IMG/VR virus record: IMGVR_UViG_3300014502_000004
Span: 1-64,000 of that record
DNA: 64,000 nucleotides
Reading direction: 5' to 3' (one strand)
Source: a virus
A program made the position numbers and the translations under genes. The notes under the pieces are model-generated. The model was not told where the DNA came from and made no database searches. It was given only the letters and a program-made list of their open reading frames with translations. This document shows positions 14,351 through 52,409 of this stretch, piece after piece. How positions within the stretch are numbered: the stretch's first letter is position 1; every line of letters starts with the position of its first letter.

Positions 14351-16411
14351 ATGCAAAGACCATCAATGTGGCCAGCTCCACTGAAAGCAAGAGTCTGGGA
14401 TGGAGTAGCTGGGGGAAAGTATCGACTGATAAATACTCTGCCGCTCTGGCAAGAGTTCTTCCCGAGACTGAATGAAAAGATGCTGGTAGGTTGTGATACT
14501 GAATCTACCAGTCTGTCCTATCTTGAGGGTCACATCATTGGGTTGAGTTTTAGCTGGGGAGCAGCCGACTCTTACTACATACCTATTCGGCATGAGACCA
14601 CTGAGAAGCAGATTGACATAGAGAAGATCAGACCAGACCTGCAAGAGTTCTACTATCATCCCAAACGAGTGACCACCTGGCATAACTACAAGCATGATGG
14701 TCACTTTCTCAGAGAAGAGAAACTAGAGCCACGAGGGATCAAGCACGACACCCGCCTGATGCAATCCCTCATTGATGAAACCAGTCTCACAGCTCTCAAG
14801 AAGCTCGCCTGCAAAGAAATCCATCCTGATGCTGCCAAGTGGGAGAAAGCTGTTGACGAGTGGAGGACTCTTTACGCTCGCAAGAACAAGATGCACAAGA
14901 ACGATGTGCATTACGGTTTGATCCCGCTCGATATCATGACCCCATACGCCAGCAGCGATGCTCACTACGAGTGGACACTCTATAAGAAGAAGCTTCCTCT
15001 CATCGTTAATGATCCTTATCTATTGGAACTGTACCTTGTCGAGATCAGACTCATGGAAGTGCTTCTCGACATCGAGCATCGTGGGGTGTTCATCAACAAG
15101 AAGTATCTAGAATCTGCTGGCCCAGAGCTGGAGGCAGAAGCCAACAAGTTGAAGCAACAGATCATCAAGCAGCTGGGGAAGGTGAACGTGGGCAGCAATG
15201 CTCAGGTCATCCCAGCTATGGAGAGGATTGGAGTCGAGTTCAAGAAGAAGACCAAGAGCGGTGAGAAGTTCTCCCTGGACCACGAGGTGCTGGAAGCCCT
15301 TGCATCACGGTACCAGGTCTGTGAGGATTTGCTGGAGTATCGTAGTGCCACTAAGATCAAGACCACCTATGTTGATTCAATACTTGAGAAGCTGATACAA
15401 GACCAAGAGCTTCACTGTACTTACAACCAGAATGTCTCTACTGGTAGAATGAGTAGCAAGAAGCCCAACCTTACCAATATACCTGCTAAAGATAAAACCA
15501 TCCGTAGATCATTTGTTCCTCCAAAAGAAGTGGCTTGTACTTCATGTGGATATTTAGGTAAACTGTACATTGTCCCTTCTGTGTGTCCAAAGTGTGGTGG
15601 TCAGGTTGTCTCTAGTGATTCATACGTTATGACTTTCTTTGATTATTCTCAAATGGAGGTGAGGTGTACTGCACATTATTCAGAAGACCCTGTTCTCCTG
15701 GATGTGTACAATGTCACTGGTGAGGATGTTCACCTCAGAACAATGTGTGAGGTGTTTGGCTACGACTACAATGAGTCACTAAAGATACTGGCTGATGAGA
15801 AGCATCCTGAGTACGCTGAGCTTTCGTTTATGCGGAAGGTCGCCAAGATGACCAACTTCTTGATCATCTATGGTGGCTCAGGCAAAACTCTTGCTGTCAG
15901 AATCAGCACCCCTAAGAAGCAATATACAGAGAAGCAATGCAACAAGTTCATTGATCAATACTTCGCCAAACTGAAGGGTGTGAAGCGATGGATCAATGAA
16001 ACCAAGATGTCTTTGCGTCAGATGCATGAAGTGCAGAACTTCTTTGGTCGATACCGTAGGTTTCCTGAGCTGACACAGCTCATGAGAAGTATCACTAGTG
16101 GTTTTGGTGGAACCAAGTGGAAGATTGAGCGGTGCGAGCGGCAAGCGGTCAACTTTCTGATCCAAGGTACTTGTGCCGATCTGTTCAAAATCTCTATGGT
16201 TCGGGTTGGTGACATCATCGCAGGAAAGAGATCAGTCATGGTCATGCCCATCCATGATGAACTGATCTTCTACATACACAAAGATGAGTTTGATCTCTTG
16301 CCTACAATCAAGAGTGAGATGGAACGCTTCAACTTCAAGGTGCCAATGACGGTGGATATTTCTGTTAGTACCACCAATTGGGCAGATAAAAAGGCACTAC
16401 ACAACGTGTAA
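14351..16411 (+). CDS. polA: DNA polymerase family A with 3'-5' exonuclease
   Basis: ExoI DTES, HNYKHD; TGRMSS; motif A DYSQME, motif B RKVAKMTNFLIIYG (Phe at the 762-equivalent), IQGTCAD, motif C IHDE. Confidence 0.96.
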   Translation: MQRPSMWPAPLKARVWDGVAGGKYRLINTLPLWQEFFPRLNEKMLVGCDTESTSLSYLEGHIIGLSFSWGAADSYYIPIRHETTEKQIDIEKIRPDLQEFYYHPKRVTTWHNYKHDGHFLREEKLEPRGIKHDTRLMQSLIDETSLTALKKLACKEIHPDAAKWEKAVDEWRTLYARKNKMHKNDVHYGLIPLDIMTPYASSDAHYEWTLYKKKLPLIVNDPYLLELYLVEIRLMEVLLDIEHRGVFINKKYLESAGPELEAEANKLKQQIIKQLGKVNVGSNAQVIPAMERIGVEFKKKTKSGEKFSLDHEVLEALASRYQVCEDLLEYRSATKIKTTYVDSILEKLIQDQELHCTYNQNVSTGRMSSKKPNLTNIPAKDKTIRRSFVPPKEVACTSCGYLGKLYIVPSVCPKCGGQVVSSDSYVMTFFDYSQMEVRCTAHYSEDPVLLDVYNVTGEDVHLRTMCEVFGYDYNESLKILADEKHPEYAELSFMRKVAKMTNFLIIYGGSGKTLAVRISTPKKQYTEKQCNKFIDQYFAKLKGVKRWINETKMSLRQMHEVQNFFGRYRRFPELTQLMRSITSGFGGTKWKIERCERQAVNFLIQGTCADLFKISMVRVGDIIAGKRSVMVMPIHDELIFYIHKDEFDLLPTIKSEMERFNFKVPMTVDISVSTTNWADKKALHNV

Positions 16412-16437
16412 AACCGATAGCTCACTTGTACTATAGG
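16407..16437 (+). promoter_or_regulatory. Phage-specific promoter motif, copy 1
   Basis: TGTAAAA-N12-TTGTACTATAGG, same at 37110 and 44897. Confidence 0.75.
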
Positions 16438-16471: not shown

Positions 16472-17119
16472 ATGACTCGAAATTTCAAGGGCTTAGACGT
16501 TTCAGTGACTTTCAACGGGATCACTTATCAGTCAAGCCTTGAAGAAGACATCACAATTAACCCAGTTGATCTTGATGTTGAATTTGTTGAACAATCTCGG
16601 AAGTATGCGTGGTGGGCCATTCTAACTGAGGTGGCCAAAGACCTGGTGGGTCAGAAGAAGTACCAGGTGGAGTTGCTCTATGCCAAGCTGGACCATGAGA
16701 AGCGCACAGCAGCTCTGGTCAACAAGGTCAAACTCACTGAAAAGATGGTGGAAAACGAGGTCATCACTGATCCTCGATATCAGAAAACCATGACAGAATA
16801 CCTCTCAATTAAGAAGGATCACGGTATGCTGCAGGCTGGAAGAGAGGCATTCACACAGCGAAAGGAGATGTTGATCTCATTGGGGGCTAACTACAGGGCC
16901 GAAGGAAATGCAGATCCTGTCATCCTCCAGGAGGTCGCCAAGCAGAAAGCCGTGGCCATGGCGCGAGCCAGAGCCCAACAGAAGGTTACAAGCTTCGTCA
17001 AAGAGGAAGATGACGTTAGAGCCCAGCAGAAGACTCTAGAACCAGTTCGGAGTTCGGCAGCACGGACTCCGGCAAAGACAGGCAAGCAGCCGGTCAAGGC
17101 TGCCCCCAAGGAGGCTTGA
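16472..17119 (+). CDS. UvsY-like recombination mediator (helical)
   Basis: EEDITIN..LDVEF.EQ...YAWW...LTEKMVENEV..DPRY...RKEMLISLGA; lies between polA and ssb. Confidence 0.55.
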   Translation: MTRNFKGLDVSVTFNGITYQSSLEEDITINPVDLDVEFVEQSRKYAWWAILTEVAKDLVGQKKYQVELLYAKLDHEKRTAALVNKVKLTEKMVENEVITDPRYQKTMTEYLSIKKDHGMLQAGREAFTQRKEMLISLGANYRAEGNADPVILQEVAKQKAVAMARARAQQKVTSFVKEEDDVRAQQKTLEPVRSSAARTPAKTGKQPVKAAPKEA

Positions 17120-17121
17120 AG

Positions 17122-18264
17122 ATGGCTTTGAAGGTTGACATGAAGAAGGCGAAGAAGAAGGCTGCTGAGGAGGCAACCAAGGCCGCCTCGCGTGGCAGCG
17201 GTCGGTTCAGCTACTGGAAGCCAGCACAGGGGAAGAGTCGCATCAGGATTCTGCCGCCATGGTCTGAGAAGGGACCCAACGCGCTCCAGTTCTGGCGCGA
17301 GGTGTTCGTTCACTGGGGTGTGGGACCGGATGAGGAAAACCAGGTTCACCTCCCTTGCCCTAGACTCTCACAGGATGGTCCCAAGGGGAAGTGTCCAGTC
17401 TGTGAGGAGGTCGAGCGGCTCAAGGCAACCAAGGACCCCTCCAATCTGGAGTTGTCCAAGAGCATCAGGGCGAAGCAGCGGGCCTACTCCAACATCATCG
17501 ATCTGGAAGACCCGATCTGGAAGCAGGAAGACATCGATGAGCAGGTTGCTGCTGGTGCTGATGCAACCACGCTTCCCAAGGTTGGGACCCCCAAGATTCA
17601 GGTCTTCTCCTACGGTCCCAAGATCATGAAGCAGCTCCTCGACTTCTACACAGAGGAGATCGATTTCACTGATCTAGAAGCTGGTCACGATGTGGTCATC
17701 ACTCGTGAGGGTCAGGGGCTTCAGACCGACTATCGAGTGATCCTCAACACCAAGCAGACCAAGGCTCCCATCAAGGGTGAGCCAACACTGCATGACCTGG
17801 ACAAGATTCTCCCCTTCCGCGAGCCCTACGAGATGAAGGCTCTCCTGGAAGGTCTGGACCCGAGTGAGGTCAAGGCTCTGGAGGAGGGCACCGAGGCAAG
17901 CACGGAAGAGCCCGCCGAAGAGGAGACTGCTGCTGAGGAGGAGGCTGAGGAGAGCGGTGGGAACGGGGAGAGCGAGGTTCCCGAGGAGGAGATCGAGGCA
18001 GCGGCTGAGGTTCAGTACCCACCGTGCTTTGGCACCGAGTGTGACCCCAAGGATTCGGTGTGCAACACGGACTGTCAGCTGTTCCCTGAGTGCAAGACCA
18101 AGTGTGGCATCGTGGATGAGCCGCCCAAGCCCAAGAGGCAAGCGGCAAAGTCTGCAGCTCCAGCTGGGAAGCCTGCGGCAAAGGCATCTCCCGCAGCAGG
18201 AAAGGCTGTTGCTGGAGCTGATGATCTGATCGCTCAAATGAAGGCAGCGGTCGAAGGAAAGTAG
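17122..18264 (+). CDS. gp32-like single-stranded DNA-binding protein
   Basis: YWKP..G..RIRILP, H..C...CPVCE Zn site, acidic region; extra C-terminal Cys cluster. Confidence 0.8.
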   Translation: MALKVDMKKAKKKAAEEATKAASRGSGRFSYWKPAQGKSRIRILPPWSEKGPNALQFWREVFVHWGVGPDEENQVHLPCPRLSQDGPKGKCPVCEEVERLKATKDPSNLELSKSIRAKQRAYSNIIDLEDPIWKQEDIDEQVAAGADATTLPKVGTPKIQVFSYGPKIMKQLLDFYTEEIDFTDLEAGHDVVITREGQGLQTDYRVILNTKQTKAPIKGEPTLHDLDKILPFREPYEMKALLEGLDPSEVKALEEGTEASTEEPAEEETAAEEEAEESGGNGESEVPEEEIEAAAEVQYPPCFGTECDPKDSVCNTDCQLFPECKTKCGIVDEPPKPKRQAAKSAAPAGKPAAKASPAAGKAVAGADDLIAQMKAAVEGK

Positions 18265-19108: not shown

Positions 19109-19602
19109 GTTCTGGCCATGGCATTTTTTGTAGTAAAAGTTGTTCTGCAAAGTCAAGAAAGAATCCTGCTGGACCACAGAATGGTCCTAACAATCATAAC
19201 TGGAAGGGAGGAGTGATTCTTTCTACCAAGGGATACTGGTATGTCTGGAGACCCGATCATGTTAGGGCAGATAAGAAAGGTTATGTAAAACGAGCTGATT
19301 TGATTATGGAAGAAGTGTTAGGTAGATCGCTAGAGAGTGATGAGGTTGTACATCACGGTCCTGGTGGTAAGGAAGATGATTCTCCAGGTAATTTAAGTGT
19401 AATGATCTCTAAGGACCATTCTAGTTATCATTGTAAGAATAATCAAAGATTGAAAAGATATAAATGGCCCTCTGATGAGCAATTGTTAGAATTCAGAAAG
19501 AAATTGTCATTTCGAGAATTGGCTAAAATTGTTGGCTGTAGTGACAGTACAGTACGCCAACATATTAAGCGAATTCTTGAATCTCGGAGGATCAATGGCT
19601 AG
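19048..19602 (+). CDS. Free-standing HNH homing endonuclease (Zn finger, NWKGG, HNH, HTH)
   Basis: CQKCG..FCSKSC; NWKGG; GYV...MEEVLGR.L...EVVHH...NL; low GC. Confidence 0.85.
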   Translation: MIERLCQKCGRSFKVSPCIIRSGHGIFCSKSCSAKSRKNPAGPQNGPNNHNWKGGVILSTKGYWYVWRPDHVRADKKGYVKRADLIMEEVLGRSLESDEVVHHGPGGKEDDSPGNLSVMISKDHSSYHCKNNQRLKRYKWPSDEQLLEFRKKLSFRELAKIVGCSDSTVRQHIKRILESRRING

Positions 19603-20806
19603 GCAAGCAGTCTCGAAGAAACCAGATAACTCCTCTCTCAGAGAGCTAGAAGCAGAACTGAAAGCGATGGGTGTGGTGGGTGAGGAAGCTGAAGCTCTCC
19701 TCAATCAAGCTCAGGGTGGGAAGATTCCAACTTCTCTGAAACCACGACCATCAGATCCTGCACGGGAGAAGGATGCTGCATTCATTACTAGCGTGGTCAA
19801 AAGGATGGAGAAACAGTTCGGCGAGGGAGCAGCTCTTACTCCAACGTCTGAGACTGTACTTTGTAAAGTAGAACACTGGGTCTCCACACGCAACTTCCTG
19901 ATTGACTCAGCGATTGCTGGTGGCCTGCCAATGCCTCGTCCATTGGTCCCGTTTGGTCGCATGACGGAGATCTCTGGATTGAACACCACAGGCAAGACAA
20001 CGTTGATGGGCATGATCATCGCTGAGACTCAGGCGACAGGTGGCATTGCTGCTGTTTCTGATACAGAGGAAGCTCTTGATCTAGCCTACTGGGAGCAGAT
20101 TGGTGTGGACCTGTCTCGCCTCATCATCATACCTGCGCTCACGATTGAAGAGGTGTTCACCAAGGTCGAGTCCATGGTGGATGTCATTCGAGAGATGGGT
20201 GACGAACGCCTCATCTGCATTGGATGGGATTCTCTTGGTGGTACTCCAACCAAAGAACAAGAAGCTGCAGCAGCTGATGATAAGTTCTACGCTTCAGCTG
20301 CAAAGGTGGTTGGACAGAACCTTCAACGCATCATTGGCAAGATCAGCAAGAAGCGCATTGCCTTGGTGATCAACAATCACCTCTACCGCAAGATGGATGT
20401 GAAGTACGGTGACCCTTGGGAGACCTATGGTGGCGAGAAGATGAAGTTCTTCGCTACACTTCGCATTCGTTTGCAACAGATTGGCCAGATCAATGAAGGT
20501 TCTGATGAAGAGAAGCAGACCATTGGTCATTTGGTCAAGGTCAAGATCATCAAGAACAAGATGGCTCCAATCCTTCGCTCTGTTGAAGTGCCCTGCATTG
20601 GTGGCTATGGTTTCAGCCTTGACTACTCCGTGTACGAGCACGCGCAGAAGCAAGGTCTCATCACAGGGAAGCAATGGAAAGAGTGGAATGGGACCAAGTT
20701 CCAGGGATGGCGTGGATTCCGAGATAAGATCATGACGCTTAGTGACTACCCAGAGTTGGTTCAGAAAGTGATCAACAACTACCACACCAAGATGACTGTA
20801 AAATAG
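19595..20806 (+). CDS. recA: RecA/UvsX recombinase
   Basis: GRMTEISGLNTTGKTT, DTEEALD, WDSLG, YGGEKMKFFATLRI, KNK; GGAGG RBS before ATG 19595. Confidence 0.95.
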   Translation: MARQAVSKKPDNSSLRELEAELKAMGVVGEEAEALLNQAQGGKIPTSLKPRPSDPAREKDAAFITSVVKRMEKQFGEGAALTPTSETVLCKVEHWVSTRNFLIDSAIAGGLPMPRPLVPFGRMTEISGLNTTGKTTLMGMIIAETQATGGIAAVSDTEEALDLAYWEQIGVDLSRLIIIPALTIEEVFTKVESMVDVIREMGDERLICIGWDSLGGTPTKEQEAAAADDKFYASAAKVVGQNLQRIIGKISKKRIALVINNHLYRKMDVKYGDPWETYGGEKMKFFATLRIRLQQIGQINEGSDEEKQTIGHLVKVKIIKNKMAPILRSVEVPCIGGYGFSLDYSVYEHAQKQGLITGKQWKEWNGTKFQGWRGFRDKIMTLSDYPELVQKVINNYHTKMTVK

Positions 20807-25331: not shown

Positions 25332-25403
25332 GCCCGCATAGCTCAGTGGCAGAGCAATGGTTTTGTAAACCATAGGTCTGGGGTTCGATCCCCCAAGCGG
25401 GCT
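25332..25403 (+). tRNA. tRNA-Thr(UGU)
   Basis: Acceptor GCCCGC/GCGGGC, D-arm GCTC..GAGC, anticodon arm ATGGT-TTTGTAA-ACCAT, T-arm TGGGG-TTCGATC-CCCCA. Confidence 0.93.
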
Positions 25404-25423
25404 CCGAAAGGTGAGTCATTGTA

Positions 25424-27824: not shown

Positions 27825-28381
27825 GTGAGATAGCTGAAAAGGTTTACGTTGCTGTAGATGTGAACAATCTATGGCACAGTTGTCGAGACATCTTTGGTTC
27901 GACAACAAGGGTGAACTATGACCAGCTCTTGAAGAAGATCAGAACTGGTGGTTACAGGGGTGTGCCCAGAGAAGTCACTGCAGTCGCCTACACCATCACA
28001 TCCCCTCATCGTCGCACCTCTGAGACTGGCCGCACACGAGAAGAGCCCTCACGCAACTCACGCTTTCTAGAATCTCTCCAGAAGTTTGGCTACCAGGTGA
28101 AGACTAGGCAGATGAGATACGAGAAGGGTGTGGACAAACCATTCCACACTGACTGGGATGTGGGCATCTCAGTTGATGCAATCACTGATCAAGATCAGTT
28201 TGATACTTTCATCATGGTTAGTGGTGATGGTGATTTCATTCCATTGATTAAGAGGTTGCAGGACAAAGATAAGAGAGTAGAAATCTATACTTTTGAGAGA
28301 ACAGCTTCACAGAACTTATACTCTGTGGCTGACAACATCGTGTTTCTTACTGTAGAAGATACCTATCAAGAAAAGATATGA
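27821..28381 (+). CDS. NYN (LabA/DUF88, PIN-fold) domain protein
   Basis: VDVNNL, DWDVGISVD, VSGDGDFIPL, S..L...AD. Confidence 0.9.
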   Translation: MSEIAEKVYVAVDVNNLWHSCRDIFGSTTRVNYDQLLKKIRTGGYRGVPREVTAVAYTITSPHRRTSETGRTREEPSRNSRFLESLQKFGYQVKTRQMRYEKGVDKPFHTDWDVGISVDAITDQDQFDTFIMVSGDGDFIPLIKRLQDKDKRVEIYTFERTASQNLYSVADNIVFLTVEDTYQEKI

Positions 28382-31278
28382 GTCCACCAACTCCCAAGAG
28401 GACGCCTTACAAGCCCATTCAACAGGTGTCTCGGACACCTGTGCAGATACCTCAGACTGAGAGTGAGATCACCAAGCTCTTCTCTAACATCGCACCAGGT
28501 GGATTGAACCTCTCAGCTCTTGGGAATGTGCCTCAGTCAATCTCCGAAGAGGATGTCAAAGCTCTCACCAATGCCAACTTCGCTCTGTGGGCATCCACGA
28601 GTGGCATCAAAGTTGATCACAGACCATTTGATTTTGGACTCCATCGATATCTGTTGCCTCTATACTTAGATCAAGCTCAAGAGATCATCATGATGAAGGC
28701 AGCTCAGATGGGTGCAACCATCTGGGTGCTGCTGCGTTTGCTTCACTTCTGCATGAATAATGATGCCAAGGCATGCCTGTTCTTCCCTACACAAGATGGT
28801 GTCACTCTATTATCTAAAGACCGCATGACACCACTAATTGATTCCAATGCTCAATTGAAAGAAGCTGTGAAGGACTCTGATACATTGGGTTACAAGCAGG
28901 TGGGAGCAAACAGTGCGCTCTACCTACGACACCTTGGTGGCATCGCATCAAAAGATTCTACACCATTCGACATGCTGGCCTTTGATGAGGTGAGGCTTCT
29001 GAATGCAGCTGATATTGATCAGGCTCGTGAACGTGTTAGTCACAGTTCATTCAAGAACATTCTACAGGTCAGCACTGCTGGCTACCCAAACTGTCTTCAT
29101 GGTGATACTAAAGTCGTAGTTCGTAAGAAGTCTAACCGTCAGATTCTTCCAATGTCTATCGCTGATCTTCTTGTAACATATGATCAATATGAGGCCCTGT
29201 CTTACAATAGAAGGGGTGGTAATAGGCCACGATGGAGGTCAATTACTGGAGCAATATGCCGTGGTAAAAGATCCATGGTAAGAGTTGGACTATGGGGTGG
29301 GCATGAGATTCGTTGTACTGCTGATCATTGCTTCGCAACAGAGTGCTCTGTTCCTCGTGGTTTTGGAATCGATTGGTCTCCTATCTCTGAAGTGGAATTG
29401 GTTCCTAATAGATTTGGTGGTTATGTTGGACCAAGTAATGGAGTTCTAGTAGTAAACTCGATACAAGACTATGAAAACAACCGATGGAATGAATTTGTAG
29501 TAGCCGCTCCTTATGACAAACTTACTCTGGCCATGGTGGGAGCTTTTGTGGCTGAGGGGACTCTGGGGCAGAGTGGAGAAGTACAGATCTGGCAGGCTTC
29601 ACACAATTTGCCAATCAGAAATCTAGTAAAAGAGTGGGCTGATTGTCAGGGACTAACTTACCGTGGGAATGCTGAGGGAGTTTTTGTTCAGGCAAGGACA
29701 AGACCTGATCTTGTAGCTTTGTTTAGATCTTGTGGTGAAAATGCTTTGACAAAAGTTATTCCAGAGTCTGTTTTATCTGGAACCCCAGATCAGTTAGATA
29801 TAGTTTTGAACTGGATTATAGAAGGTGATGGTCATAGACGATGTGAGAGAAAGAACTCTCATGAAAGTTGTCGTAAATGGGATATTTATACCTCTAGTGA
29901 GAGGCTTGCTTCACAGCTTAGGTTCATAGGTTTAAGAACCAATAAACCACACTCAATATCTATTAGAGATCGTGACGGAGTACAAAGACAGTTTGTGTTG
30001 TCGTACAATCCGTCTGCGTTTAGAATGCAAGAGGTCTTGCCAGCTCTTGGTCGTCTCGCAGTAGGTGAACGAGTCCCTTGCGAAGATGACTACGCTTTTG
30101 ATCTTGAGATTGAGGAGACCCCATGGTTTGTGCTAGCTGAGAGTGGATGTCTTGTTCATAACAGTGACATACATAAACAATTCCTAAGGGGTACGCAAAA
30201 CTATTTCCACTCAAAATGCAATTGCCCAGACGGAATTGTGTTATCAGATGTATTCCCTGATTGCATCGCTACATCACCAAAGAAGGAAGTCTATTATCGA
30301 TGTCCACGATGCAAGATGAAGATTGTTGATCCACAGAATGGTCGTTACATAGAGCATAACCCTGGTGCGCGAGTACAGAGCTATCACATCCATCAGATGT
30401 TGTCGAAGTTCATCTCTGCTGCCGAGATCTGGGAGGCTTATCAGATCACACAGAACGTCAAGGAGTTCTTCAACGCGAAGCTTGGCAAGCCTTACGTAGA
30501 TGAGGACAACGTTCCTGTCACTGATGATGATCTTTTAGCATGTGAGAACACTGATCTGATGTGGGACCATGGCAAGACTCACACAGCCATGGGTGTAGAT
30601 CAGATGAGTGGTCTTCTCTACATAACCATCTGTCAGCGATTTGGAAACAAGAAGAGAATTGTCCACTATGAGATTGTGGACGATATGAATCATATCTATT
30701 TTGAAGCTGGCAAGAGGCAGCCATCTTTCAAACGTCTCTATCAGCTCATGAAAGAGTTTGACGTAGATCTGTGCATCATTGATGCAATGCCTAACGCTAA
30801 CGAAGCTATGGAGTTCGCACGAGCATTTCCCAAGCGTGTGTTCGTGGCCTGGTACCTTGAGCAACAGCGTGAGGTAGCCCAGTGGGGCGACAGGCCCAAG
30901 CCCAAGGTGGCTGTGAGAAAAGGTGGACCCAAGATCAAATTCAAGCACAGCGTTCTGCTCAGTCGCTACCTCAGCATCGAAATGGCCATGAAAGAGATCG
31001 CTGACCGCAACGTGGAGTGGCCAAATCCCCGAGCCCTTGTGCAGATCTGTCGGAATCAAAAGACAGGACACTTTGAGCCACTACACATCTTTGAGACTCA
31101 CTTCTATCTACATTGCAAGTCCATTGTGAAACAGAAGACTATACTTGATGATGAGACTGGTCGATTCAAGATGGAGTGGGTAAACCTTGGATTAGATCCC
31201 CATTCAGTGCATTCCTGGAATTACTGTAATATTGCTATGGAAAGGCTAAGAAGACAGCCAATCTTTACGATGGTGTAG
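28378..31278 (+). CDS. terL: Terminase large subunit (GpA-like) containing an intein
   Basis: MKAAQMGAT, Walker B LAFDEV, VST, FFNAKLGKPY, nuclease MGVDQ. Confidence 0.9.
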   Translation: MSPPTPKRTPYKPIQQVSRTPVQIPQTESEITKLFSNIAPGGLNLSALGNVPQSISEEDVKALTNANFALWASTSGIKVDHRPFDFGLHRYLLPLYLDQAQEIIMMKAAQMGATIWVLLRLLHFCMNNDAKACLFFPTQDGVTLLSKDRMTPLIDSNAQLKEAVKDSDTLGYKQVGANSALYLRHLGGIASKDSTPFDMLAFDEVRLLNAADIDQARERVSHSSFKNILQVSTAGYPNCLHGDTKVVVRKKSNRQILPMSIADLLVTYDQYEALSYNRRGGNRPRWRSITGAICRGKRSMVRVGLWGGHEIRCTADHCFATECSVPRGFGIDWSPISEVELVPNRFGGYVGPSNGVLVVNSIQDYENNRWNEFVVAAPYDKLTLAMVGAFVAEGTLGQSGEVQIWQASHNLPIRNLVKEWADCQGLTYRGNAEGVFVQARTRPDLVALFRSCGENALTKVIPESVLSGTPDQLDIVLNWIIEGDGHRRCERKNSHESCRKWDIYTSSERLASQLRFIGLRTNKPHSISIRDRDGVQRQFVLSYNPSAFRMQEVLPALGRLAVGERVPCEDDYAFDLEIEETPWFVLAESGCLVHNSDIHKQFLRGTQNYFHSKCNCPDGIVLSDVFPDCIATSPKKEVYYRCPRCKMKIVDPQNGRYIEHNPGARVQSYHIHQMLSKFISAAEIWEAYQITQNVKEFFNAKLGKPYVDEDNVPVTDDDLLACENTDLMWDHGKTHTAMGVDQMSGLLYITICQRFGNKKRIVHYEIVDDMNHIYFEAGKRQPSFKRLYQLMKEFDVDLCIIDAMPNANEAMEFARAFPKRVFVAWYLEQQREVAQWGDRPKPKVAVRKGGPKIKFKHSVLLSRYLSIEMAMKEIADRNVEWPNPRALVQICRNQKTGHFEPLHIFETHFYLHCKSIVKQKTILDDETGRFKMEWVNLGLDPHSVHSWNYCNIAMERLRRQPIFTMV
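29092..30162 (+). mobile_element. Intein (357 aa) with LAGLIDADG-type endonuclease
   Basis: Starts CLHGDT, block B CTADH, GAFVAEG and WIIEGDG, ends LVHN followed by Ser. Confidence 0.92.
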
Positions 31279-37109: not shown

Positions 37110-37140
37110 TGTAAAACGATGGGTTGGGTTGTACTATAGG
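37110..37140 (+). promoter_or_regulatory. Phage-specific promoter motif, copy 2
   Basis: TGTAAAA-N12-TTGTACTATAGG. Confidence 0.75.
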
Positions 37141-43287: not shown

Positions 43288-43963
43288 AGGATTGATTGGG
43301 TCTGGTAAATCGACGTTGGCTAATGAACTTGGTGATGCTCTAGGACCAACAACTTTGGTTCTGAAGGAGCCTGACGAGAAGGGAGCAGCCAATCCCTACC
43401 TGGCTGACTACTACAAAGACTCCAAGAGATGGTCTCTGACCATGCAGCTTCATTTGTTGGGCAAGCGTTTCAGTATGCATCAGGATGCTCAGTGGCATGC
43501 TTTGAACGGCAGAGGCCCAGCTGTTCTTGATCGAAGCTATTATGGGGACACTTCTTTTGCTCGTGTTCAGAGATCAATGGGTTTGATGTCAGAGAGGGAG
43601 TTCGAGACATACCAGGTGCTCTACCATGAGATGACAGCCTTCGTTCTCTACCCAACATTCTGTGTCAGAATACTTGTTGATCCTGAAGTATGTAACCAAA
43701 GGATTCAAAACAGGATGGAGAAGGAGCAGGGAAGGAAGTGTGAGCAGGCGATTGACCTGGACTACCTAAGAAATCTGGACAGAGAAATAGGTCATGTGGT
43801 ATCAGTATTGAGGAGTCAGGGTGTGATCATCATCGATATGCCTTGGGACACAGACAGAGAAACCAAAGAACAGCGTGAACGTTCAGTACAAAGCTTAGCG
43901 TCTAGAATCATGTCTGTTGATCCTCCAGATATGTTCCTGGACCTTCACCGAAGGACACTTTGA
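43250..43963 (+). CDS. Deoxynucleoside kinase
   Basis: IEGLIGSGKST, EP, YLADYY.D.KRW, LDRS..GD..FA, lid RIQNR. Confidence 0.9.
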   Translation: MMKIKKCPVTIIEGLIGSGKSTLANELGDALGPTTLVLKEPDEKGAANPYLADYYKDSKRWSLTMQLHLLGKRFSMHQDAQWHALNGRGPAVLDRSYYGDTSFARVQRSMGLMSEREFETYQVLYHEMTAFVLYPTFCVRILVDPEVCNQRIQNRMEKEQGRKCEQAIDLDYLRNLDREIGHVVSVLRSQGVIIIDMPWDTDRETKEQRERSVQSLASRIMSVDPPDMFLDLHRRTL

Positions 43964-44376
43964 TGAATCAGTACGAGACAGTTGAGATTCTTGAGAAGAT
44001 CGAGGGGTTAGTTAACAACCGACCTGTTTCCTTGGCTCTTGAGCTTCAATCGAAGATCAATGAGGATGGCAGGAAGGGTAATCCCTATCCGATTTTGAAG
44101 GTGAACATCAACGGGAGAGAGCAGTTCTACTTCATCGACATTGCTGAAAAGGTCCATGAGATGCTTGGGCAGCTTCTCCCCAAGGCGCTACAGATCAAGT
44201 CTGAGCACGACGCAGCTTTCAAGTCTCGCCGGGAAGCATGGGAGAAGCGTCAGCAGAGCAACCCCAATATTGGTCAGGGACGTATTGTGGTTCCTCCCCC
44301 AGTCGAAGAGGAGCCTGCCAAGCCTCCTCGTCGGAATGGGAAGGATAGAAGGGATAGGGACGAGCAGGACGATTGA
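43960..44376 (+). CDS. Hypothetical protein
   Basis: ORF tiling. Confidence 0.55.
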   Translation: MMNQYETVEILEKIEGLVNNRPVSLALELQSKINEDGRKGNPYPILKVNINGREQFYFIDIAEKVHEMLGQLLPKALQIKSEHDAAFKSRREAWEKRQQSNPNIGQGRIVVPPPVEEEPAKPPRRNGKDRRDRDEQDD

Positions 44377-44687
44377 TGCTTCGCCATAGTTATCGTCGCC
44401 GCCCTGGGGTGACACATGACGACAGGATAAAGGCAGCCTGGCTCCAGGCCAAGTTTTCATCTTGGCCTCCTCACATTGGAACGAAGGTAAAGATGTGGTG
44501 GCCCGAGCTACGAGGGAAGGTAGCCCTTGTAGTGGCTACGGAGCAGTACATCAAGCTGGGGTTCAAGAGCGTTCGGGTTGGCACCAACAAGGTGCGAATT
44601 CAATGTGGGGCTTTGGTGGCTCTTGTGCGAGATGTTGATGTCTTTCCTCCTGAGTTCTCCGTCAAAGACATCTTGAAGATTCTCTAG
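44373..44687 (+). CDS. Hypothetical protein
   Basis: ORF tiling. Confidence 0.5.
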   Translation: MMLRHSYRRRPGVTHDDRIKAAWLQAKFSSWPPHIGTKVKMWWPELRGKVALVVATEQYIKLGFKSVRVGTNKVRIQCGALVALVRDVDVFPPEFSVKDILKIL

Positions 44688-44896
44688 AACCGTATTCCAT
44701 ACTCCATCAGCTCAATCCTCGGTGTTGTAGGCCGGCTCGTTGATCATTCTAGGTTTCTAGAAACTGTGGCGGTCAGTGGACTACGCATGCGTAGTTAGGG
44801 ACTTACCTTAACTACTGTTGGATAACTATTTGAAGTTATTGGGATATCTTCTGTAACCTCCGTAAAATGCCTCTTTAAAAGTAGAAAGAAAGGGGC

Positions 44897-44927
44897 TGTA
44901 AAATGCCTCTCTCGTTTGTACTATAGG
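44897..44927 (+). promoter_or_regulatory. Phage-specific promoter motif, copy 3
   Basis: TGTAAAA-N12-TTGTACTATAGG immediately upstream of the histone gene. Confidence 0.75.
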
Positions 44928-44945
44928 ATTACAGGAGGTTGACCC

Positions 44946-45122
44946 ATGATTCTTGTTGTGGTTTCCAAGCTTAAGGCGCTTGTTAAGGCTGGAGGTCTCA
45001 GAACTTCTGCTGAATTCGTAGAAGCTCTCAACTCCAAGGTGGCAGAAATTGTGATCCAAGCTGCCCAGAATTGCAAAGAAGACGGAGATCGAAAGACGCT
45101 GAAACCAAAAGATCTGGCTTGA
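44946..45122 (+). CDS. Bacterial-type histone-fold protein (58 aa, not in ORF track)
   Basis: MILVVVSKLKALVKAGGLRTSAEFVEALNSKVAEIVIQAAQNCKEDGDRKTLKPKDLA; AGGAGG RBS; RKT...D histone L2/alpha3 signature. Confidence 0.88.
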   Translation: MILVVVSKLKALVKAGGLRTSAEFVEALNSKVAEIVIQAAQNCKEDGDRKTLKPKDLA

Positions 45123-45131
45123 GTTTTCTAG

Positions 45132-45160
45132 TTGACACTGGAGATGGTGTTAGCTAGGGT
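45132..45160 (+). promoter_or_regulatory. Sigma70-like promoter
   Basis: TTGACA-N17-TAGGGT. Confidence 0.6.
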
Positions 45161-45378
45161 GGAGTTTCATGGCTGCTTGGTTTGATAGCACTTTGTTCTT
45201 TCCGCTGGTGCTAGTCACCAACCTGAGGATCAATAGTGTCAGTCGGAATCAAGTTTGTTGGTATGAGCTGTGAAGAGTTACCTAGCCCGTAGCCCTCCCA
45301 CAGCTCGCCAGCAGTAGGACGGGGAGGCACACCTGGCCAAATGGTGTCTCATTTTCTTCTTACTATCTGGTGAAATTG

Positions 45379-49864: not shown

Positions 49865-50490
49865 AATCAAATCCGAGATTGTATCTATTGGTGAAGGCAG
49901 GAGCAGATCAGGAATCTGGTGGCCGCACTACGATGCCTTCTGGGGGTCAGGCCAAGCGTGAAGATGAGCACAGCTACTCTCGGCAGCCTGAAGGGGAGAG
50001 TGGTGATCCTACCGCAGACACTGCCGAGGAACGATGGCATGGTTCTGGAACCGAGACTGATGAGGATGACCCTCACAAAGATGACAATGAGCAGACTGGT
50101 GAGGAGCGGGATGTTCAGAAGGTGTGGTCCAATCCTCAGGTTCCTTTCCAGCAGAAGGATGTAGCTGAGGCTCCTGCGGAGGCACCCGGGGATGCACCTG
50201 GGGCAGCCCCCGGAGTCATTCCTGGGCAGCAGCAGGCCCCTCCAGGAGAGCAAGCTTCTGTCGTGAAGAGCCTGATGGCTCAAGCCATGAAGGCATTTGC
50301 TGGGGCTCCTCGTTTTGCTCAGGGTCCATTGGTTCCTCCTCGTGAGAAAGAGTGGCTCAAGACTCAGGGGTATTCCCCCGATGAGATCGATTCAGGTCAG
50401 GTTCAAATCACTTCTCGAATGAGGGGTGAGTTCAATCGTTGGCTTCAAGGAACCATCAGGAAGTCTCTTGGTGGTTTGATGAGGGGATAA
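49861..50490 (+). CDS. Head-module protein
   Basis: LLVKA, VVKS, IRKS motifs; directly before portal. Confidence 0.65.
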   Translation: MKSNPRLYLLVKAGADQESGGRTTMPSGGQAKREDEHSYSRQPEGESGDPTADTAEERWHGSGTETDEDDPHKDDNEQTGEERDVQKVWSNPQVPFQQKDVAEAPAEAPGDAPGAAPGVIPGQQQAPPGEQASVVKSLMAQAMKAFAGAPRFAQGPLVPPREKEWLKTQGYSPDEIDSGQVQITSRMRGEFNRWLQGTIRKSLGGLMRG

Positions 50491-50492
50491 CG

Positions 50493-52409
50493 ATGATTGC
50501 TCCCCCTGTGGACTACACTGAGATTCAGAAGTCGATCTCAGCTCAAGAGATGCAAGAAGCCTATCAGGAAGTGGGACGGTTAAGAAATGTCACTTCCCAC
50601 ATTCCTGTTGCTGCTAGAAAAGAGCCAGGGGCTCTTCAGAAGGCATATCGTGGTCTTTCAGATATGGGTCCTAATCGTGGTCCCAAGTCTGCCTTCTTCG
50701 ATCCTCTCTCACTTCAGTATGCGATGGGGTACAAGGACCGTCGCTATTCTCTGACCTATGATGTTCTCAAGCGATGTGCAACTCAGCTCTCAATTGTTGC
50801 TGCTATTGTCAATACTCGAATTGCTCAGATTGCATCGTTTGCTGCTCCGTATCGAACCACGAAGTCTCTGGGGTACATGGTCAAGCACAAAGACCCAGAG
50901 CACATGACAACTCGTGCTGAGCGTGAGTTCATCAAACAGCTTGAAGCATTCGTTGCTAACTGTGGTGAGCCTGGAAAGAAGAATATCTACAGTAGAACTT
51001 CAAGGGATGATTTTGAGTCATTCTTGAAGAAGGTTGTTAGAGACACATTGGTCTATGATCAGCTTTGTTTCGAGATCGTTCCTAGAAACAATAGAATCCC
51101 ATTTGAGTTTCTAGCAATTGATGCAGCCACGATCAGAATTGCATCTACAGATCGCGATGCTGGTATTGGTTTTAGCTACCATGCTCGAAATCCTGTGGCC
51201 CCTCTTGGTGGTCGTTTCGCTGCCCTCTATGAGAACAAGCAGTATGGGGCATTGACAGGAAGCGGCTACGGTGGATTCTCTGATCCTGTCACCGATCAAG
51301 ATGTGCAGTTTGTTCAGATCATCAATGGTCAGATCGAGAACGTCTACAGTGAGAGCGAGCTGGCTTTTGGTGTTCGGAATCCTCGTACTGACATCTACAT
51401 TCAGCAGTACGGTTATGGTGAGATTGAACAGCTCATCACCATCGTGACTTCTCTCCTCTTCTCTGAGGAATACAACCGTCGATATTTCACCCAAGGTTCT
51501 CACCCCAAGGGTTTGCTTAACTTCAAGGGTGATAACTGGACACCAGATCAGCTTGAGGCATTCCGTCGGCAGTGGGTTGCTACTGTGGCGGGTGTTGAGA
51601 ATGCATGGAAGACTCCAATCACTCAGTCTGAAGGAATTGAGTGGATCAACCTTCAGATGACCAACAAGGATATGGAGTTCTCCACCTGGATTGAGTATCT
51701 AATCAAGATCATTTGTGGTGTGTACCTGATTGACCCAGCAGAAATCAACTTCGACCTTCATGGTGGTGTGCAGCAGACGCCACTTTTTGAATCAAGTCAG
51801 GAGTGGAAGCTCAAGGCATCTCGTGATCGTGGTCTGAAGCCGCTCCTTAGGTTCATTGCCAAGCTTATCAACAAGCATGTCATTGACAAGATCGATGATC
51901 ATTTCGTGTTCGAGTTCGTTGGGCTTGATGAGCTGACGGAACAAGAAAAGCACGAGATGATCAAGGAGCAGATCGCAAGCTACATGACTCTTAATGAAGC
52001 TCGTCGGTCTCTCGATCTTCCTGACATTCCGCTGGGTGATGTTCCACAGAATCCTACCTATGTTCAACTGTTGCAGATCTACAACCAGAACATTCAGCAG
52101 CAGCAAGCTCAGCAGCAGCAACAGCAGCAGATGGAACAGCAGCAAGCGATGGCAGCTCAGCAGGGTCAACTTCCTCCTGGGGCCGAGCAGCAGGGTCAGC
52201 TTCCTCCTGGTGCTGAGTCCCCCCAGGGTGGACAGGTTGTGAGGGCTCCCGGTCAGCCCGGTGAGGGAGGCATTCCTGCTGGTCAAGGTCCAGTTCCAGG
52301 CGAGAGGCCAGGAGCCACACCTAAGTACACAGCCAATTTCGGTAAGTCGATGAAAGAAATCGTTGTGACTTTCGACGATTGGATTGATCAAAAGAGGAGT
52401 GACAAATGA
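50493..52409 (+). CDS. Portal protein (SPO1/Twort-like) with Q/P/G-rich C-terminus
   Basis: RNPRTD..YG...E, YNRRYF.QG..PKGLL, NAWKTP, DMEF..W, IDPAEINF, SRDRGLKPLL, MTLNEAR. Confidence 0.92.
   Translation: MIAPPVDYTEIQKSISAQEMQEAYQEVGRLRNVTSHIPVAARKEPGALQKAYRGLSDMGPNRGPKSAFFDPLSLQYAMGYKDRRYSLTYDVLKRCATQLSIVAAIVNTRIAQIASFAAPYRTTKSLGYMVKHKDPEHMTTRAEREFIKQLEAFVANCGEPGKKNIYSRTSRDDFESFLKKVVRDTLVYDQLCFEIVPRNNRIPFEFLAIDAATIRIASTDRDAGIGFSYHARNPVAPLGGRFAALYENKQYGALTGSGYGGFSDPVTDQDVQFVQIINGQIENVYSESELAFGVRNPRTDIYIQQYGYGEIEQLITIVTSLLFSEEYNRRYFTQGSHPKGLLNFKGDNWTPDQLEAFRRQWVATVAGVENAWKTPITQSEGIEWINLQMTNKDMEFSTWIEYLIKIICGVYLIDPAEINFDLHGGVQQTPLFESSQEWKLKASRDRGLKPLLRFIAKLINKHVIDKIDDHFVFEFVGLDELTEQEKHEMIKEQIASYMTLNEARRSLDLPDIPLGDVPQNPTYVQLLQIYNQNIQQQQAQQQQQQQMEQQQAMAAQQGQLPPGAEQQGQLPPGAESPQGGQVVRAPGQPGEGGIPAGQGPVPGERPGATPKYTANFGKSMKEIVVTFDDWIDQKRSDK

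Follow-up and report, generated by a model that had tools for sequence, protein, structure and literature searches.

Might a histone act as a tailed phage's own nucleoid-associated protein in replication and recombination, and could it functionally take the place of TF1, the HU-type protein of phage SPO1? Both questions are raised by a small gene in the window analyzed here, that is, the stretch of 64,000 nucleotides that comprises positions 1 to 64,000 of the IMG/VR virus record IMGVR_UViG_3300014502_000004. Bacterial histones have been recognized only in 2023-2025 and their phage counterparts are so far entries in two computational surveys; the protein described below is a concrete, well-delimited example of the phage alpha3 histone class. 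With 58 residues, it is among the smallest complete histones that possess the full RKT-x4-D signature and is thus well suited to structural and single-molecule studies.

The gene and the phage

The first-pass annotation of this locus had described a 58-aa open reading frame with a strong AGGAGG ribosome-binding site directly behind a promoter motif, and all these elements can be read in the sequence along with several adjacent features:

44946 to 45122, plus strand: histone coding sequence, 58 aa, ATG start, stop codon included (ORF list, phmmer, AlphaFold2, Foldseek, dN/dS)
44933 to 44938, plus strand: Shine-Dalgarno sequence AGGAGG, 7 nt 5' of the ATG, read from the sequence
44898 to 44927, plus strand: promoter-like bipartite motif GTAAAA-N12-TTGTACTATAGG, ending 18 nt before the histone ATG
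44862 to 44874, plus strand: 13-nt box GTAAAATGCCTCT, the more upstream of two exact copies (44862 and 44898)
45123 to 45369, plus strand: untranslated gap of 247 nt between the histone gene and a gene for a KTSC-domain protein, possibly a 3' UTR

The exact 58-aa protein is present in a public collection of predicted proteins (P0001 in our set), where it is found on 5 contigs, so that at least one gene caller has detected this open reading frame. A 15-bp hairpin at 45126-45158 begins 4 nt past the histone stop codon; given that no U-tract follows, it is not a canonical intrinsic terminator.

The complete virus record is linear and comprises 77,563 bp, with a CheckV completeness estimate of 53%; all its long open reading frames are on one strand. 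It encodes a DNA polymerase, an SbcC-like nuclease subunit, the large terminase, the portal, a single-stranded DNA-binding protein (SSB) and a UvsX-like recombinase. The portal (50439-52409) is approximately 41% identical to the portals of SPO1-group Herelleviridae, which fits a genome near 146 kb, and the head module to which it belongs begins near 48.9 kb, approximately 4 kb downstream of the histone gene. DNA of this phage is present in peat and permafrost metagenomes of many studies. A megablast search with 10 kb gave no match to a near-identical GenBank phage, and tblastn of the histone against GenBank phages gave no match at E<=0.1; these searches thus revealed no close homologue in a cultured phage. 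Two further features of the window were recorded. The large terminase ORF (28378-31278, 966 aa) has PHROG matches that are split between residues 98-238 and 593-959, and the approximately 350 residues in between could represent an inserted intein or homing endonuclease. A single tRNA-Thr (anticodon TGT) at 25332-25405 is the only RNA gene detected in the window.

Fold and family assignment

The near end-to-end alignment with the Bdellovibrio protein Bd0055 (HBb) given in the first-pass annotation was reproduced by a phmmer search against the PDB sequences, in which two HBb/Bd0055 chains rank first (8fvx_A, E 3.1e-6; 8cmp_A, E 3.5e-6) and residues 2-57 of the phage protein (56 of its 58 residues) are aligned with residues 4-59 of the HBb chain. 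The runner-up is the Leptospira histone HLp (E 1.5e-5). The Pfam Histone family (PF00125) yields 15.9 bits (E 0.016), below its gathering threshold of 26.4 bits; being built on core histones, this model detects alpha3 histones poorly. Among 1.8 billion representative sequences, HMMER identified 90 relatives at E<=1e-3, the nearest of which are approximately 60% identical to the phage protein, and the ten nearest are all unnamed metagenome proteins.

The AlphaFold2 model, computed from an alignment of 57 relatives, has a pLDDT of 94.9 and consists of helices at residues 6-15, 22-45 (alpha2, 24 residues) and 54-57 (alpha3, 4 residues). Comparison of the predicted structure with Bd0055, which had been proposed as a check of the original claim, was performed with Foldseek and yielded a histone fold that superposes on HBb with a TM score of 0.91 and an rmsd of 1.0 A; the scores are 0.85 for HLp and 0.86 for the archaeal HTkC, whereas nucleosomal histones reach only approximately 0.6. 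Prokaryotic histones account for all of the top 8 PDB matches (TM 0.85-0.91), and the remainder are mostly histones or histone-fold proteins. The model thus has the alpha1-L1-long alpha2-L2-alpha3 arrangement of the histone fold and can be superposed on solved histones. In alpha3-truncated histones, alpha3 comprises 3-4 residues and alpha2 is shorter than the nucleosomal one (Schwab et al. 2024, PMC11390915), and both of these features, a 4-residue alpha3 and a shortened alpha2, are found in the phage protein.

The signature noted at first reading requires a small amendment: RKT...D is indeed present, as R49-K50-T51-x4-D56, which aligns with R51, K52, T53 and D58 of HBb, and the spacing is x4, as in HBb, rather than the x3 originally given. 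The claim that the phage encodes an HBb/Bd0055-type histone fold is backed by sequence, fold, signature residues and conservation, and it is almost certainly correct.

DNA-contact residues and oligomeric state

The ten residues that contribute most to DNA contacts in HBb are N22, R57, S9, T53, T8, S24, K10, K12, K52 and K16 (10.1101/2023.02.26.530074). When the phmmer alignment is combined with the published HBb numbering, the equivalents in the phage protein are, in the same order, R19, K55, S7, T51, V6, S21, K8, K10, K50 and K14. Seven of the ten are identical (S7, K8, K10, K14, S21, K50 and T51), two positions carry basic substitutions (R19 and K55) and T8 alone is lost, being replaced by V6. 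The Arg/Asp (RD) clamp R49-D56 and the extra aspartate D46 are kept, as is the hydrophobic dimer core (L9, L28, V32, I35 and L57). The net charge of +3 equals the median of 36 bacterial singlet histones.

The HLp tetramer is built by R49, S52 and N53 (PMC12701072). The counterparts of these residues in the phage protein are N42, D46 and G47, the pattern of the dimeric HBb (S45, G50), and from the face-to-face signature (HLp R49, N53 and R55) only the equivalent of R55 (R49) was found. Given the replacement of HLp R49 and N53 by N42 and G47, wrapping of DNA by a preformed tetramer is not expected. On the basis of the fold match, the RD clamp, the KT motif, the retained DNA-contact residues and the absent face-to-face signature, the protein can be classed with the alpha3-truncated histones of 'bacterial dimer' type. 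The marks of the 'phage histones' (VTTHFP) are absent, given that the protein stops 2 residues past D56 and carries RKT-x4-D. It also differs from DUF1931 pseudodimers in having one 58-aa fold with retained DNA-contact residues; among the homologues, only that of L002 gives a DUF1931 match, which is sub-threshold.

Prediction with two copies of the chain gave a score of 0.88, compared with 0.00 for the best of 3 controls; as HBb dimers have been solved, this result shows likeness and may reflect the predictor's memory of those structures. That mark was reached by 20 of 30 proteins solved as same-chain pairs and by 1 of 23 solved as single chains, counts that apply only roughly because the prediction used our own alignment. 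The three two-copy runs showed 100% contact agreement, with a partner pLDDT of at least 93, and the predicted contacts are those of the histone handshake, in which the alpha2 helices cross at residue 32 and L1 (18-21) faces L2 (50-54).

Conservation, selection and expression

Homologues that are 48-70% identical to the phage protein are encoded in related phage contigs (L002, L003/4/83, L085-88, L091, L094 and L117). The copy in L085/L086, a protein of 59 aa with 70% identity from a 152-kb contig, is encoded directly after a deoxynucleoside kinase gene (71% identical to that of the window), with a portal gene (75% identical) located downstream. Further copies are found in L002/L101/L102 and L094; in L087/L088; in L117; in L091; and in L003/L004/L083/L105. 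The dN/dS ratio is 0.07 for the pair L002-L094 and 0.18 for L003-L091; between the gene of the window and L085, synonymous sites are saturated and pN/pS is 0.26. Failure of the open reading frame to be conserved had been named at the outset as a potential refutation of the histone claim; instead, homologues occupy syntenic positions with dN/dS far below 1. Judging from these substitution ratios, the histone gene is under purifying selection in related SPO1-like myoviruses.

A single assembled contig of 446 nt from one peat metatranscriptome (X12), which belongs to the same study as the likely source sample and in which DNA carry-over is possible, covers positions 44902-45347 free of mismatches and spans the whole open reading frame and the following gap. 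In the same library, the approximately 960 nt upstream (43940-44901) have no cover, and a separate contig starts at 45369, with the next gene. The ends of the X12 contig are not transcript ends, and it begins about 30 nt upstream of the transcription start predicted from the motif; the pattern of cover is compatible with a discrete transcript. RNA runs X16, X17 and X18 contain no contig over the open reading frame itself, which is not evidence of absence.

Several observations pertain to the gap that follows the gene. An adapter-flanked fragment of 135 nt from X18, an RNA library of another study, maps wholly within it (45186-45320) and overlaps a 34-codon open reading frame at 45169-45273. 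An Rfam search of the 247 nt gave no match to a structured RNA, and folding gave no reason to regard the gap as one (z -1.72, not significant; 13 of 200 shuffled sequences fold equally well).

Promoter-like motif and link to replication and recombination genes

The 12-mer TTGTACTATAGG upstream of the histone gene occurs in exactly 3 copies in the entire 77,563-bp record (16426, 37129 and 44916), compared with a chance expectation of approximately 0.01 occurrences for a given 12-mer in a sequence of this length. All 3 copies are intergenic, on the plus strand, and have GTAAAA exactly 12 nt upstream. The features concerned are:

16408 to 16437, plus strand: second copy of the promoter-like motif, preceding the operon with the SSB and UvsX-like genes
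17116 to 18264, plus strand: gene for the gp32-like SSB (phrog_1192, E 1.4e-36)
19529 to 20806, plus strand: gene for the UvsX/RecA-like recombinase (phrog_97, E 1.4e-51)
37111 to 37140, plus strand: third copy of the promoter-like motif, preceding a run of small genes of unknown function

The copy at 16408-16437 heads an operon that consists of a gene of unknown function, the gp32-like SSB and, further on, the UvsX-like recombinase. The copy in front of the histone gene includes a -10-like TACTAT at 44919-44924. On the basis of its sequence and distribution, GTAAAA-N12-TTGTACTATAGG is a candidate promoter. A sigma-70 reading of the motif produced only weak matches (9/12), centered on TAAAAT inside the GTAAAAT box.

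In the sister phage L085, a partly conserved counterpart of the promoter-like motif is located 5' of the histone gene; the exact 12-mer TTGTACTATAGG was not found upstream of the histone homologues in L002, L003 and L085. The two copies of GTAAAATGCCTCT (44862-44874 and 44898-44910) are 36 nt apart, both 5' of the histone gene, and a related box, GTAAAAAGTGCCTCTC (L085:7923-7938), is found together with a TTCGTATTATAAA element 5' of the L085 histone gene. GTAAAAAGTGCCTCTC is a near copy of GTAAAATGCCTCT despite the saturation of synonymous sites between the two histone genes, and this box may be a gene-specific operator.

Gene order in sister phages independently points in the same direction as the motif. 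In L003/L004/L083/L105, the histone gene is located between the gene for a gp32-like SSB and those for MazG and a RecA-like protein, and in this group the SSB and the RecA-like recombinase are 50% and 52% identical, respectively, to the SSB and the UvsX-like protein of the window; in L091, the histone gene adjoins the SSB gene. The common promoter-like motif and the gene order in sister phages thus tie the histone to replication and recombination genes, and the SSB and UvsX-like genes are candidates for co-regulation with the histone gene. No match to the HU family (PF00216) was detected in this record (53% complete), in L002 (68%) or in L083 (65%).

Proposed function

By analogy with HBb and TF1, we somewhat favor the view that the expressed alpha3 histone would be the phage's own homodimeric nucleoid-associated protein on replicating or recombining phage DNA. 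Two copies would pair via the classical histone handshake, and the predicted dimer would offer the lysines of alpha1, the Thr/Ser of L1 and the Lys-Thr of L2 to the DNA backbone. If the protein behaves like HBb, its binding to double-stranded DNA would be independent of sequence and would bend the DNA. Expression would probably proceed from the phage-specific promoter class common to the SSB/UvsX-like operon, presumably with the timing of that operon, and the protein would then act on replicating, recombining phage DNA as its likely target, paralleling the HU-type TF1 of SPO1.

Phylogeny and the question of the host

To place the phage protein among its relatives, 78 loci from bacterial genomes, 80 from metagenomes and 5 from viruses were gathered, and a locus was labeled 'phage' if it came from a viral collection or if its neighboring genes matched genes of this phage. 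In three trees, the clade that includes the phage protein consists of phage-context copies and unlabeled metagenome proteins and contains none of the 78 bacterial-genome loci, so that it is phage-specific as regards the copies of known context. The support for this clade is SH-aLRT 92 and 81 in two of the trees and UFBoot 88/SH-aLRT 93 in the careful tree of 129 rows, in which the bootstrap was not fully settled and the signal comes from only 58 columns. Eight of the 9 distinct phage-context copies belong to the clade, and the ninth, L084, is placed elsewhere. L084:7959-8144 and L165 represent one complete phage of 195,735 bp that encodes an alpha3 histone and also has an HU-family match (PF00216, E 6e-9); its histone comes from a different clade, where it groups with P0033.

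Among bacteria, an Elusimicrobiota-type clade (99/90) comes nearest, and the support for its link to the phage clade is only 90/78, too weak for a donor to be named. Given the absence of bacterial-genome copies from the phage clade, the gene was not recently acquired from any identifiable host. The suggestion of the first-pass annotation that the histone hints at a host from a histone-encoding lineage accordingly finds no support in the three trees, and the phylogeny that it proposed as a means to infer the donor, once constructed, allows neither a donor nor a host lineage to be read from this clade. The bacterial copies, many of which are ZZ fusions, are distributed among Elusimicrobiota, Bdellovibrionota, Myxococcota, Planctomycetota and Chlamydiota, and the same distribution has been published for bacterial dimer and ZZ histones (PMC11390915). 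The N-terminal Cys-rich zinc-finger fusions seen in many Bdellovibrionota and Myxococcota loci (including L013, L020, L022, L026-L031, L038, L041, L042 and L054-L062) are the known ZZ histones.

The tree topology also bears on the possibility that the histone targets the host, either by compacting and silencing the nucleoid or by poisoning host chromatin through mixed dimers with an HBb-type host histone. HBb binding is non-specific and involves only the backbone (10.1101/2023.02.26.530074), so that host DNA would be bound as well, and the residues of the dimer interface are conserved with the bacterial proteins; in addition, host nucleoid proteins such as H-NS and MvaT are known targets of phages. 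Nevertheless, the fact that all 78 bacterial-genome copies fall outside the phage clade speaks against adaptation to a single host histone, and the associations of the gene are with replication and recombination rather than with an early host-takeover module. Host targeting therefore appears unlikely.

Divergence within the phage clade

In most members of the phage clade, another residue stands in place of the KT-motif Lys, and in many the Arg of the clamp is likewise exchanged; judging from these replacements, DNA binding may not be the selected property across the clade. Most members also carry a short acidic C-terminal extension (EE, DEE, FEEE or long Asp/Glu tails), among them L002:7992-8198, L003:8001-8198, L085, L087, L091, L094, P0002, P0003, P0007, P0014 and P0048. 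This extension lowers the net charge from +3 to +6 for the core to 0 to +3 for the full protein. The protein of the window ends in KDLA, without an acidic tip. In one subclade (L003:8001-8198, L087, L117, P0014, P0016, P0039, P0041, P0051 and P0069), the R-x-T-x4-D clamp is exchanged for M-x-T-x3-R-H (Met...His), whereas the protein of the window retains R49...D56; from the sequences, the joint change of Arg/Asp to Met/His seems to be a compensatory exchange within one intramolecular contact.

DUF1931 and many eukaryotic histone-fold proteins serve as protein-binding modules. The histone fold of the phage protein could likewise be an adaptor for a partner such as the SSB, the recombinase or the polymerase, with DNA binding secondary or lost. 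The acidic tips of most clade members, which are reminiscent of the interaction tails of SSB-type proteins, the loss of the KT-motif Lys or of the Arg/Asp clamp in many of them, and the position of the gene beside SSB and UvsX in sister phages all fit such a role. For the protein of the window itself, we consider this explanation rather improbable: it has no acidic tip and keeps the full RKT-x4-D, 9 of the 10 HBb DNA-contact positions are identical or basic, and the net charge is +3.

A broader and decidedly speculative extension of the nucleoid-associated role is that the phage histone lineage as a whole (about 25 relatives) could be a dedicated part of SSB/UvsX recombination-dependent replication in SPO1-like environmental myoviruses, where it would shape intermediates, with most members binding partners via the acidic tip. 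If true, this would be a role of the histone fold that has not been described in cells or giant viruses.

The location of the gene approximately 4 kb upstream of the head module, together with the packaged histones known from giant viruses (PMC11390915), might suggest that the protein is a virion component that compacts or accompanies the genome like the Marseilleviridae histones. The gene lies outside the structural cluster, however, and in sister phages it is found in the replication module. Moreover, DNA in tailed-phage capsids is near-crystalline in density and leaves little room for stoichiometric histones, so that we regard packaging as very improbable. Finally, that the open reading frame arose by chance or from an annotation error, as its small size (58 aa) and the Pfam score below the cut-off could be taken to indicate, is hardly conceivable given the strong ribosome-binding site, the 90 homologues at E<=1e-3, the confident fold, the syntenic conservation with dN/dS far below 1 and the RNA-library contig cover.

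Comparison with known systems

The closest characterized relative of the phage protein is HBb (PDB 8fvx, 8cmp, 9ezz and 9f0e), which is essential and abundant in Bdellovibrio bacteriovorus. The two proteins belong to the same length class, are approximately 34-36% identical end to end, and share the truncated alpha3, the RD clamp with the extra Asp, the KT motif, the Ser-Lys-x-Lys of alpha1 and the lack of a tetramer signature. Unlike HBb, the protein described here is encoded by a phage, has an extra residue in L2 (D48), carries Val in place of T8 and Arg in place of N22, and belongs to a separate clade in which all copies of known context are from phages. With the face-to-face tetrameric alpha3 histones HLp (Leptospira perolatii, 9qt0) and HTkC (Thermococcus kodakarensis, 9f2c), it shares a nearly identical monomer fold (TM 0.85-0.86) but has N42 and G47 at the positions of HLp R49 and N53.

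A study of 2024 had already pointed out that phages encode alpha3 histones (PMC11390915). The 'phage histones' of that study (Schwab et al. 2024, PMC11390915; A0A2E7QIQ9 type, VTTHFP in the 2025 survey) are, like the present protein, phage-encoded and alpha3-truncated, but they have a long C-terminal tetramerization helix and no RxT...D, whereas the present protein ends at alpha3. The 2025 survey of IMG/VR 4 counted 84 Caudoviricetes histone-fold proteins of the 'bacterial-like' kind and, in a wider set, 289 non-redundant ones (PMC13681535), and its BBVHFP cluster comprises Bd0055-like predicted dimers (PMC13681535). The present protein resembles BBVHFP in its IMG/VR source, Bd0055 match, single fold and predicted dimer (PMC13681535), and the analysis described here adds genomic context, a candidate promoter, a hint of expression and phylogeny, which the survey does not give for the class. 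The BFVD database contains four close structural matches (TM 0.81-0.87), two of which are labeled uncultured Caudovirales phage. The literature searched yielded no experimental work on any alpha3 histone from a phage. Phage HBb-like histones are thus already known from computational surveys and the present protein is a further example, to which this analysis adds genomic context, candidate regulation, an analysis of selection, an RNA hint and a phylogeny.

The system that the proposed nucleoid-associated role brings closest to mind is TF1 of the Bacillus phage SPO1, an HU-family type II DNA-binding protein that is essential for SPO1 multiplication (Sayre and Geiduschek 1988, as cited in PMC10531801). 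Both are small proteins encoded by SPO1-type large myoviruses, and the phage histone would, like TF1, be a DNA-bending dimer; the fold of TF1 is that of HU and the fold of the present protein is that of histones, so that the analogy between the two is purely functional.
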